A stretch of 64,000 nucleotides of DNA from Escherichia coli (GTDB taxonomy: Bacteria; Pseudomonadota; Gammaproteobacteria; Enterobacterales; Enterobacteriaceae), in the NCBI RefSeq assembly GCF_003334815.1, contig NZ_QOWO01000018.1; one strand, given 5' to 3'. The first letter of the stretch is position 1. Every line of letters begins with the position of its first letter. Both the position numbers and the translations under genes were made by a program. Below the pieces are notes generated by a model. It saw only the letters and a list, made by a program, of their open reading frames with translations. It had not been told where the DNA came from and did not search any database. Positions 60,699 through 62,663 of this stretch are shown here, in pieces.

Positions 60699-62663
60699 AT
60701 GTCACATTATAAAACAGGTCATAAACAACCACGATTTCGTTATTCAGTTCTGGCCCGCTGCGTGGCGTGGGCAAATATCTCTTTTCAGGTTCTTTTTCCA
60801 CTCGCTGTCACCTTTACCCCAGTAATGGCGGCACGTGCGCAGCATGCGGTTCAGCCACGGTTGAGCATGGGAAATACTACGGTAACTGCTGATAATAACG
60901 TGGAGAAAAATGTCGCGTCGTTTGCCGCAAATGCCGGGACATTTTTAAGCAGTCAGCCAGATAGCGATGCGACACGTAACTTTATTACCGGAATGGCCAC
61001 AGCTAAAGCTAACCAGGAAATACAGGAGTGGCTCGGGAAATATGGTACTGCGCGCGTCAAACTGAATGTCGATAAAGATTTCTCGCTGAAGGATTCTTCG
61101 CTGGAAATGCTTTATCCGATTTATGATACGCCGACAAATATGTTGTTCACTCAGGGGGCAATACATCGTACAGACGATCGTACTCAGTCAAATATTGGTT
61201 TTGGCTGGCGTCATTTTTCAGGAAATGACTGGATGGCGGGGGTGAATACTTTTATCGATCATGATTTATCCCGTAGTCATACCCGCATTGGTGTTGGTGC
61301 GGAATACTGGCGCGATTATCTGAAACTGAGCGCCAATGGTTATATTCGGGCTTCTGGCTGGAAAAAATCGCCGGATATTGAGGATTATCAGGAACGCCCG
61401 GCGAATGGCTGGGATATTCGTGCTGAGGGCTATTTACCCGCCTGGCCGCAGCTTGGCGCAAGCCTGATGTATGAACAGTATTATGGCGATGAAGTCGGGC
61501 TGTTTGGTAAAGATAAGCGCCAGAAAGACCCGCATGCTATTTCTGCCGAGGTGACCTATACGCCAGTGCCTCTTCTGACACTGAGCGCCGGGCATAAGCA
61601 GGGCAAGAGTGGTGAGAATGACACTCGCTTTGGCCTGGAAGTTAATTATCGGATTGGCGAACCTCTGGCGAAACAACTCGATACAGACAGCATTCGCGAG
61701 CGTCGGGTACTGGCAGGCAGCCGCTATGACCTGGTTGAGCGTAATAACAACATCGTTCTTGAGTACCGCAAATCTGAAGTGATCCGTATTGCTCTGCCTG
61801 AACGTATTGAAGGTAAGGGTGGTCAGACACTTTCCCTGGGGCTTGTGGTCAGCAAAGCAACTCACGGACTGAAAAATGTGCAGTGGGAAGCGCCGTCATT
61901 ACTGGCTGAGGGTGGCAAAATTACCGGTCAGGGTAGTCAGTGGCAAGTAACGCTCCCGGCTTATCGTCCAGGCAAAGACAATTATTATGCGATTTCTGCG
62001 GTTGCCTACGATAACAAAGGCAATGCCTCAAAACGCGTGCAGACAGAGGTGGTCATTACCGGAGCAGGTATGAGCGCCGATCGCACGGCGTTAACGCTTG
62101 ACGGTCAGAGCCGTATTCAAATGCTTGCTAACGGTAATGAGCAAAGACCGCTGGTGCTGTCTCTGCGCGACGCCGAGGGGCAGCCAGTCACGGGCATGAA
62201 AGATCAGATCAAGACTGAACTAGCCTTCAAACCGGCTGGAAATATTGTGACTCGTTCCCTGAAGGCCACTAAATCACAGGCAAAGCCAACACTGGGTGAG
62301 TTCACCGAAACTGAAGCAGGGGTGTATCAGTCTGTCTTTACTACCGGAACGCAGTCAGGTGAGGCAACGATTACTGTTAGCGTTGATGGCATGAGCAAAA
62401 CCGTCACTGCAGAACTGCGGGCCACGATGATGGATGTGGCAAACTCCACCCTGAGCGCTAACGAGCCGTCAGGTGATGTGGTTGCTGATGGTCAGCAAGC
62501 CTATACGTTGACGTTGACTGCGGTGGACTCCGAGGGTAAGCCAGGTGTCTATACGTTCACATTCAACGCACTGACGTATGGCGGGTACGAAATGACGCCT
62601 GTGAAGGTGACAATTAACGCCGTTGCTGCAGAGACTGAAAATGGCGAGGAGGAGATGCCATAA
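60699..62663 (+). CDS. eaeH: Intimin/invasin-family inverse autotransporter adhesin (EaeH/FdeC-like), 654 aa
   Basis: N-terminal signal/anchor, beta-barrel region with intimin-like motifs (TRIGVGAEYWRDYLKLSANGYI), followed by Ig-like (Big) repeats; ends at 62663. Confidence 0.8.
   Translation: MSHYKTGHKQPRFRYSVLARCVAWANISFQVLFPLAVTFTPVMAARAQHAVQPRLSMGNTTVTADNNVEKNVASFAANAGTFLSSQPDSDATRNFITGMATAKANQEIQEWLGKYGTARVKLNVDKDFSLKDSSLEMLYPIYDTPTNMLFTQGAIHRTDDRTQSNIGFGWRHFSGNDWMAGVNTFIDHDLSRSHTRIGVGAEYWRDYLKLSANGYIRASGWKKSPDIEDYQERPANGWDIRAEGYLPAWPQLGASLMYEQYYGDEVGLFGKDKRQKDPHAISAEVTYTPVPLLTLSAGHKQGKSGENDTRFGLEVNYRIGEPLAKQLDTDSIRERRVLAGSRYDLVERNNNIVLEYRKSEVIRIALPERIEGKGGQTLSLGLVVSKATHGLKNVQWEAPSLLAEGGKITGQGSQWQVTLPAYRPGKDNYYAISAVAYDNKGNASKRVQTEVVITGAGMSADRTALTLDGQSRIQMLANGNEQRPLVLSLRDAEGQPVTGMKDQIKTELAFKPAGNIVTRSLKATKSQAKPTLGEFTETEAGVYQSVFTTGTQSGEATITVSVDGMSKTVTAELRATMMDVANSTLSANEPSGDVVADGQQAYTLTLTAVDSEGKPGVYTFTFNALTYGGYEMTPVKVTINAVAAETENGEEEMP

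Follow-up and report, generated by a model that had tools for sequence, protein, structure and literature searches.

An internal in-frame deletion in the Escherichia coli adhesin gene fdeC leaves a rare 654-residue allele

The DNA analysed was a 64 000-nucleotide (nt) stretch of Escherichia coli contig NZ_QOWO01000018.1 (assembly GCF_003334815.1), referred to below as the window, which carries an open reading frame (ORF) of 654 amino acids (aa) with an ATG start at 60699..62663 on the plus strand (TAA stop at 62661-62663). This ORF corresponds to fdeC (eaeH), a chromosomal adhesin gene, in its normal position; it is present as a deletion derivative that encodes a non-canonical FdeC, and it is short through an internal in-frame deletion, not through 3′ truncation. 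The allele was very probably produced by one microhomology deletion in fdeC, and is read as an attenuated or non-functional adhesin allele in early decay, confined to a small and recent clade.

Gene identity was established by megablast against 5426 complete E. coli genomes, in 5081 of which the gene gave matches, with the underlying feature, where annotated, given as fdeC, 'inverse autotransporter adhesin FdeC'. The neighbourhood is canonical (ecp operon, ykgL, ykgO, ykgM, ykgR, fdeC, a convergent AraC/GyrI-type regulator resembling ykgA, and rclCBA) and collinear with the annotated loci of strains Z217-4 and 52F4, and the exact 654-aa protein was grouped with FdeC in a 90% identity cluster. 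As in inverse autotransporters (type Ve), a PF11924 barrel precedes a C-terminal passenger of bacterial immunoglobulin (Ig)-like domains (Big_1/Invasin_D3). An intimin/invasin-family adhesin with a barrel followed by Ig-like repeats had been described in the first-pass annotation, made from the sequence alone; the Pfam matches to IAT_beta and Invasin_D3 agree with that description, and the identity can be given as FdeC/EaeH. The conserved position and near-identity of an FdeC/EaeH orthologue were both found, and the full passenger, with about ten Ig-like domains and region B, was absent: orthologues are 1415-1418 aa long, as expected from the earlier remark that family members are often much longer.

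Intimin proper (Eae) was rejected, as the NCBIfam intimin model scored 362 bits against a cut-off of 1400 and the locus is ykg/rcl and not the locus of enterocyte effacement (LEE). In the NCBIfam scan of the protein no FdeC-specific model was returned, and every inverse-autotransporter model stayed under its cut-off. Intimin and Yersinia invasin have the same type Ve architecture, and the window barrel matched the solved structures of invasin (4E1T, E 9e-83) and intimin (4E1S, E 1e-71); unlike them, the window protein has no LysM domain detectable by Pfam, and its gene lies outside the LEE island. The Pfam scan of the 654-aa protein likewise found no lectin domain, and FdeC has been described as having no C-type lectin-like tip domain (Nesta 2012, PMC3324786).

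The deletion was delimited by base-by-base comparison with the full-length fdeC of strain Z217-4 (4257 nt, 1418 aa). Gene nt 1-1841 correspond to full-length nt 1-1841 with one mismatch (nt 85), and the final 126 nt match the full-length end exactly; the missing interior amounts to 2292 nt, or 764.0 codons (FdeC codons 614-1377 of 1418). Residues 1-613 are FdeC 1-613 and residues 614-654 are FdeC 1378-1418. The deleted length is divisible by three, so the reading frame continues into the native last 41 codons, the stop and the 3′ hairpins, and the clean ending of the gene, remarked on earlier, is explained by retention of the native C-terminus, stop codon and 3′ flank. In the megablast search almost all genomes matched just query nt 1-1849 and had a second matching place in the same record. 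An alignment with FdeC had been proposed as a way of finding missing C-terminal domains; domains are missing, but from the interior (residues 614-1377), and the C-terminus itself is present.

The full-length passenger contains nine Pfam Ig-like domains (about 474-573, 579-680, 684-783, 788-885, 891-986, 1000-1090, 1094-1193, 1200-1298 and 1313-~1410; Pfam was run on the passenger alone, offset +350), preceded by a D00-like domain at 358-474. The deletion takes out D3-D8 completely and the greater part of D2 and D9, about 7.5 Ig domains, and with them almost the whole of regions B and C as named by Nesta et al. (2012). Of the FdeC crystal construct 4E9L, only residues 595-616 of the 654-aa protein still match. 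Full-length FdeC/EaeH (PMC3324786; PDB 4E9L) is the same gene at the same locus, with the same signal peptide, barrel, stop and 3′ hairpins, and the window protein equals it over residues 1-613 and the last 41 except for V29F; it differs in possessing residues 614-1377 with the crystallised, protective fragment, which the window allele lacks. In a MAFFT alignment of the nine domains the last kept D2 residue (…AVDSEG) fell in column 35 and the first kept D9 residue (KPGVYTFTF…) in column 86, so that 28 (D2) to 44 (D9) central-strand residues have no counterpart in the hybrid. By this alignment the junction is out of register and a complete Ig domain cannot be rebuilt.

The breakpoint flanks (±150 nt) had a local similarity score of 11, against 9.7 ± 1.3 (maximum 15) for shuffled sequences, and protein identity in pairs of Ig domains involving D2 or D9 was 14-32%. 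The joining sequence is perfect over 2 bp and imperfect as AAnCCnGGTG. Since the flanks were no more alike than shuffles and the domains share so little identity, the deletion appears to have arisen by illegitimate, microhomology-type joining, and one such recombination would have removed all 2292 bp (764 codons, residues 614-1377). Repeat-mediated unequal crossover was also considered and was rejected on the shuffle-like flanks, the low domain identity and the out-of-register junction.

A 401-nt query spanning the junction was covered to at least 80% in one of the 5426 complete genomes, that of strain 52F4 (calf, Switzerland); the deleted 2292-nt segment was at least 80% present in 4602 (85%). 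In look-ups in a 15-billion-protein collection, the exact protein (CAM9273101.1, 'Big-1 domain-containing protein') was found in 7 contigs by cluster and 13 by contig, and a common full-length FdeC allele in 1000 or more contigs. The junction is shared by several independent assemblies and read sets (GCA_037967415.1, GCA_965212685.1, SRR25056346 and SRR25064885), and carriers differ by 0-1 substitutions within the gene. The retained 1967 nt differ from the full-length allele by a single base, gene nt 85 (window 60783), which changes Val to Phe (V29F) within the signal-peptide hydrophobic core and is common to 52F4. Because this is the only substitution between the retained DNA and the full-length allele, the deletion event is judged to be recent, and from the genome and contig counts it is rare. 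The ancient 3′ deletion suggested earlier is thus upheld as a deletion, but it is neither 3′ nor ancient.

Over 11 kb strain 52F4 shares 99.95% identity with the window; it has the same junction together with A1156T (K386*), a nonsense change in the D00-like domain; its gene is called a pseudogene by the Prokaryotic Genome Annotation Pipeline (PGAP). The window therefore carries, with its ORF still open, an allele whose decay has gone further in 52F4, its closest sequenced relative. Databases annotate the 654-aa allele inconsistently: one record names it 'Big-1 domain-containing protein' and another gives it as a pseudogene.

Features of the allele and its 3′ flank are collected in table 1.

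Table 1. Coordinates of the fdeC allele, its domains, the deletion junction and the 3′ hairpins in the window.
Feature	Position	Strand	Basis or detail
fdeC (eaeH) allele, codons 614-1377 deleted in frame	60699..62663	+	base-by-base match to full-length fdeC
Putative N-terminal signal peptide, aa 1-44 (...TPVMA↓ARAQ), with V29F	60699..60830	+	sequence; putative cleavage site
Inverse-autotransporter β-barrel, aa 76-350	60924..61748	+	Pfam PF11924 (IAT_beta), E 4e-109, model 3-279 of 279
First Ig-like passenger domain, D00-like, aa 358-474, intact	61770..62120	+	intimin entry 6TQD, E 1.5e-12
Second Ig-like domain, aa 474-578, intact	62118..62432	+	Pfam Invasin_D3 aa 474-573, E 3e-9
Chimeric remnant, aa 579-654	62433..62660	+	first 35 residues of D2 + last 41 residues of terminal domain D9 and tail
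Deletion junction, 2-bp 'AA' microhomology	62538..62539	+	gene nt 1840-1841; codon 614 AAG = Lys
Junction-spanning 31-mer			GGACTCCGAGGGTAAGCCAGGTGTCTATACG
Hairpin 1, 16-bp stem, 3-nt loop, fdeC-ykgA convergent intergenic region	62696..62730		folding
Hairpin 2, 15-bp stem, 6-nt loop, native fdeC 3′ flank	62739..62774		folding

Residues 1-44 begin with a basic N-region, followed by a hydrophobic core that ends VMA↓A; V29F apart, they equal the 44-aa FdeC signal peptide, which has been used experimentally as a biopart (PMC13101318). The match to 6TQD spans residues 358-481, and the domain is here named D00-like. In the chimeric remnant a partial Pfam Invasin_D3 match was found at aa 579-633 (model positions 1-51 of 98). 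An AlphaFold2 (AF2) model of the 654-aa protein was computed with a 48-sequence alignment of diverse homologues, and intact D00-D3 with the same homologues served as control. The predicted local distance difference test score (pLDDT) was about 85-95 for the barrel and the two intact Ig domains (D00-like about 86-94; second Ig domain mostly above 88 except loop 517-522). The remnant was modelled as a small β unit with pLDDT mostly 68-81 and a low of 59 towards the tail, whereas intact D2 scored 83-96 in the control; this lower confidence is suggestive only, as AF2 cannot judge the stability of a deletion product.

Intimin 'Neae' 1-654 is an engineered truncated display anchor. An engineered FdeC 1-474 (FdeC-T) has been shown to be an efficient C-terminal surface-display anchor (PMC13101318), the barrel and one or two proximal Ig domains being sufficient for outer-membrane insertion and export of what follows; since FdeC 1-474 is display-competent, residues 1-613 would contain the membrane-insertion and passenger-export module. 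The engineered anchors are laboratory constructs with cargo, whereas the window allele is natural and bears a chimeric Ig fragment. The product would retain the signal peptide, the 12-stranded β-barrel, the linker and the first two Ig-like domains, and would end in a 76-residue chimera in which D2 strands A-B are joined to the last strands of D9 and the tail. Sec export and outer-membrane insertion would be expected to persist, with the short passenger still pushed out through the barrel, and the 654-aa product is probably inserted and displayed as a stub. This stub, about 2.5 domains long in place of a rod of about 10, would lack the protective antigen FdeC-B and have reduced reach. Region B (597-1008) has been crystallised and is an antigenic vaccine fragment that protected mice (PMC3324786). 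In the same study cells and collagens were bound by FdeC-AB, but no binding to cells was seen with FdeC-B alone (Nesta et al. 2012, PMC3324786). The 654-aa allele is most likely an attenuated or non-functional adhesin in early gene decay.

Other lesions of fdeC were found among the genomes. The 784-aa allele WP_077491956.1 (e.g. ECCNB20-2; 223 contigs) results from an independent in-frame deletion of 1902 bp, in which aa 579 is fused to about aa 1212 across a 5-bp GGATG microhomology. Like the 654-aa allele it has lost an internal segment in frame at a short microhomology and keeps the native C-terminus; unlike it, it has other breakpoints, retains two distal Ig domains and is much commoner. 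In NZ_CP034787.1 (2300-4654) PGAP treats the 784-aa allele as intact and names its product 'inverse autotransporter beta domain-containing protein'. A frameshifting deletion of 1103 bp was found in fdeC of HCM-25C-3, the fdeC 5′ end of ECCHD184 has been lost to the insertion sequence (IS) IS1, and OkiPb01684 fdeC carries IS421; two in-frame deletions out of three are compatible with chance. In K-12 derivatives the match ends at gene nt 876 and is followed by IS3. This point equals window 61574/61575, inside the barrel, where the window reads through uninterrupted, as the first-pass annotation had stated. The K-12 eaeH pseudogene (b0297) is the same gene, also shortened, in a phylogroup-A-like background and with 99.9% identity over nt 1-876; there IS3 cuts inside the barrel and everything downstream, with the ykgA 3′ end, is lost, whereas barrel and ykgA are intact in the window. 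A complete fdeC has been reported in 67% of 126 genomes (PMC6714894), and a truncated fdeC variant in 22 non-pathogenic isolates (PMC11143625).

Several points speak against a decaying allele. The ORF remains open, with the start, signal peptide and barrel of the native gene, and sequence proves no loss of function; retained region A may contribute to binding, given the results for FdeC-AB and FdeC-B; the AF2 remnant is predicted as a small β unit at moderate confidence and not as disorder; and the carrier clade is too shallow for any selection test. One alternative is a functional, selectively retained 'mini-FdeC' that would bind through region A or act at close range and would have shed region B in immune evasion. 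The preserved reading frame and native terminus, the display competence of FdeC 1-474, cell binding by FdeC-AB but not by FdeC-B alone, an AF2 remnant not predicted as disordered, and the independent in-frame 784-aa allele, fairly widespread and annotated as intact, are all consistent with such a protein. It was nevertheless considered unlikely. The 654-aa allele is very rare (one complete genome, about 13 contigs), and the sole complete-genome carrier already has a nonsense codon in the D00-like domain. Other lineages show out-of-frame deletions and IS insertions, and two in-frame cases among three deletions are compatible with chance; the out-of-register junction cannot restore a complete Ig domain, and the AF2 confidence of the remnant is well below that of the control's intact domain. 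The wider proposal that the 654-aa and 784-aa alleles are both selected 'mini-FdeC' forms, from which the distal Ig rod has been excised so that region-A binding is kept and region B removed, was regarded as very unlikely; if it were true, recurrent microhomology deletions would offer a way for antigenic escape when immunity is directed at FdeC.

That the gene is a naturally short orthologue, or was truncated long ago at its 3′ end, was given next to no probability. Inverse autotransporters of roughly 560-700 aa exist among cluster representatives, and IatB, of 725 aa, has been reported in E. coli. A search of 1.84 billion cluster representatives gave 1922 relatives at E <= 1e-3, with lengths of 295-6629 aa among the best 150, and short inverse autotransporters therefore exist as a class. 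For this gene, however, both possibilities were refuted by the native 3′ end, identical to that of full-length fdeC over 126 nt, and by the presence of the missing interior in most complete genomes. Far from being conserved in most strains, a finding that the first-pass annotation had named as decisive for a naturally short variant, the 654-aa length is the exception. An ancient truncation is further opposed by the single substitution in the retained DNA. The best-scoring stretch of many of the homologues listed stops at query residues 613-617, that is at the junction, a pattern more in keeping with an interrupted domain than with a natural terminus. In short-read assemblies, adhesin genes rich in repeats tend to be collapsed, and the Ig-domain region might have been shortened in this way. 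The chance of such an assembly artefact was put as practically negligible, as the Ig repeats in pairs involving D2 or D9 are only 14-32% identical, the breakpoints share no DNA homology, and the identical junction was recovered from a complete genome as well as from several assemblies and read sets made independently. Decay of fdeC after one microhomology deletion remains the favoured explanation.

The strong hairpin reported earlier at 76 nt downstream of the stop was recovered as hairpin 2 (ΔG −26.8 kcal/mol, z −7.2; none of 200 shuffled sequences folded as well); hairpins 1 and 2 jointly gave ΔG −52.5 and z −10.8. No T-tract follows either 3′ hairpin, and the terminator scan flagged neither. 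Hairpin 2 was rejected as a canonical intrinsic terminator for want of a T-tract on either strand and of a flag in the terminator scan, and as a product of the deletion because it is part of the native 3′ flank. Window 62538-62800 was found at 100% identity in every full-length-fdeC genome, these being the 100%-matching ones among the 32 matches listed for the junction-spanning query. The only match in an Rfam scan of 56000-64000 was to mir-1012, on the hairpin; at 33.6 bits it lay below the gathering score of 70 and was attributed to chance. Upstream, at 60586-60624 (~75-110 nt before the fdeC start), a perfect palindrome with an 11-bp stem (ATTTCCTTTTC…GAAAAGGAAAT) and an adjoining short GC hairpin were both flagged as terminator-like on the minus strand. 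These structures might terminate a minus-strand remnant lying upstream, or belong to the regulatory region of fdeC.

The ykgA-like AraC/GyrI-type regulator convergent with fdeC is intact in the window (62803-63654, minus strand, 283 aa; NCBIfam Rob-like under cut-off), and in K-12 the 3′ end of the ykgA-like gene has been lost to an IS3-associated deletion. At 63760-64000, up to the window end, the left end and orfA start of an IS3-family element were found (IS1203/IS629-like, about 97% identity); the insertion point lies about 106 bp upstream of the regulator start codon. This insertion is absent from 52F4, and its junction is present in no complete RefSeq E. coli genome; draft contig CBDBYT010000020.1 of GCA_965212685.1 has the identical IS junction and breaks inside the IS. 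The insertion may alter ykgA expression.

Two further differences from 52F4 were seen in the window. About 24 kb at 2684-26689 is absent from the otherwise 99.95-100% identical 52F4, in which fliF and fliD are adjoining pseudogene fragments. The window ORFs in this segment include full-length FliF, FliI, FlgE, FlgK and FliD homologues, and the Flag-2 (lateral flagella) cluster appears to be far more complete in the window than in 52F4. At about 43580-43597, by tRNA-Thr/proA, a 6.4-kb island is present in 52F4 and not in the window; it holds a retron St85-family reverse transcriptase and effector with Ogr/Delta, Psu-like and DUF927 genes (P4-like satellite remnant), and an 18-bp overlap of the alignment blocks at the site suggests an att-type repeat.

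FdeC is well studied, and disrupted and truncated fdeC alleles have been reported previously; the 654-aa gene is most likely one more ordinary allele in decay and does not represent a novel type of short adhesin. The commoner 784-aa allele would be the better subject for functional testing of a shortened FdeC. The 654-aa allele is relevant to fdeC typing, to FdeC-B vaccine coverage and to consistency of annotation: typing of fdeC by 5′ or 3′ polymerase chain reaction or by short-read mapping would score such a strain as positive even though the FdeC-B antigen is missing.
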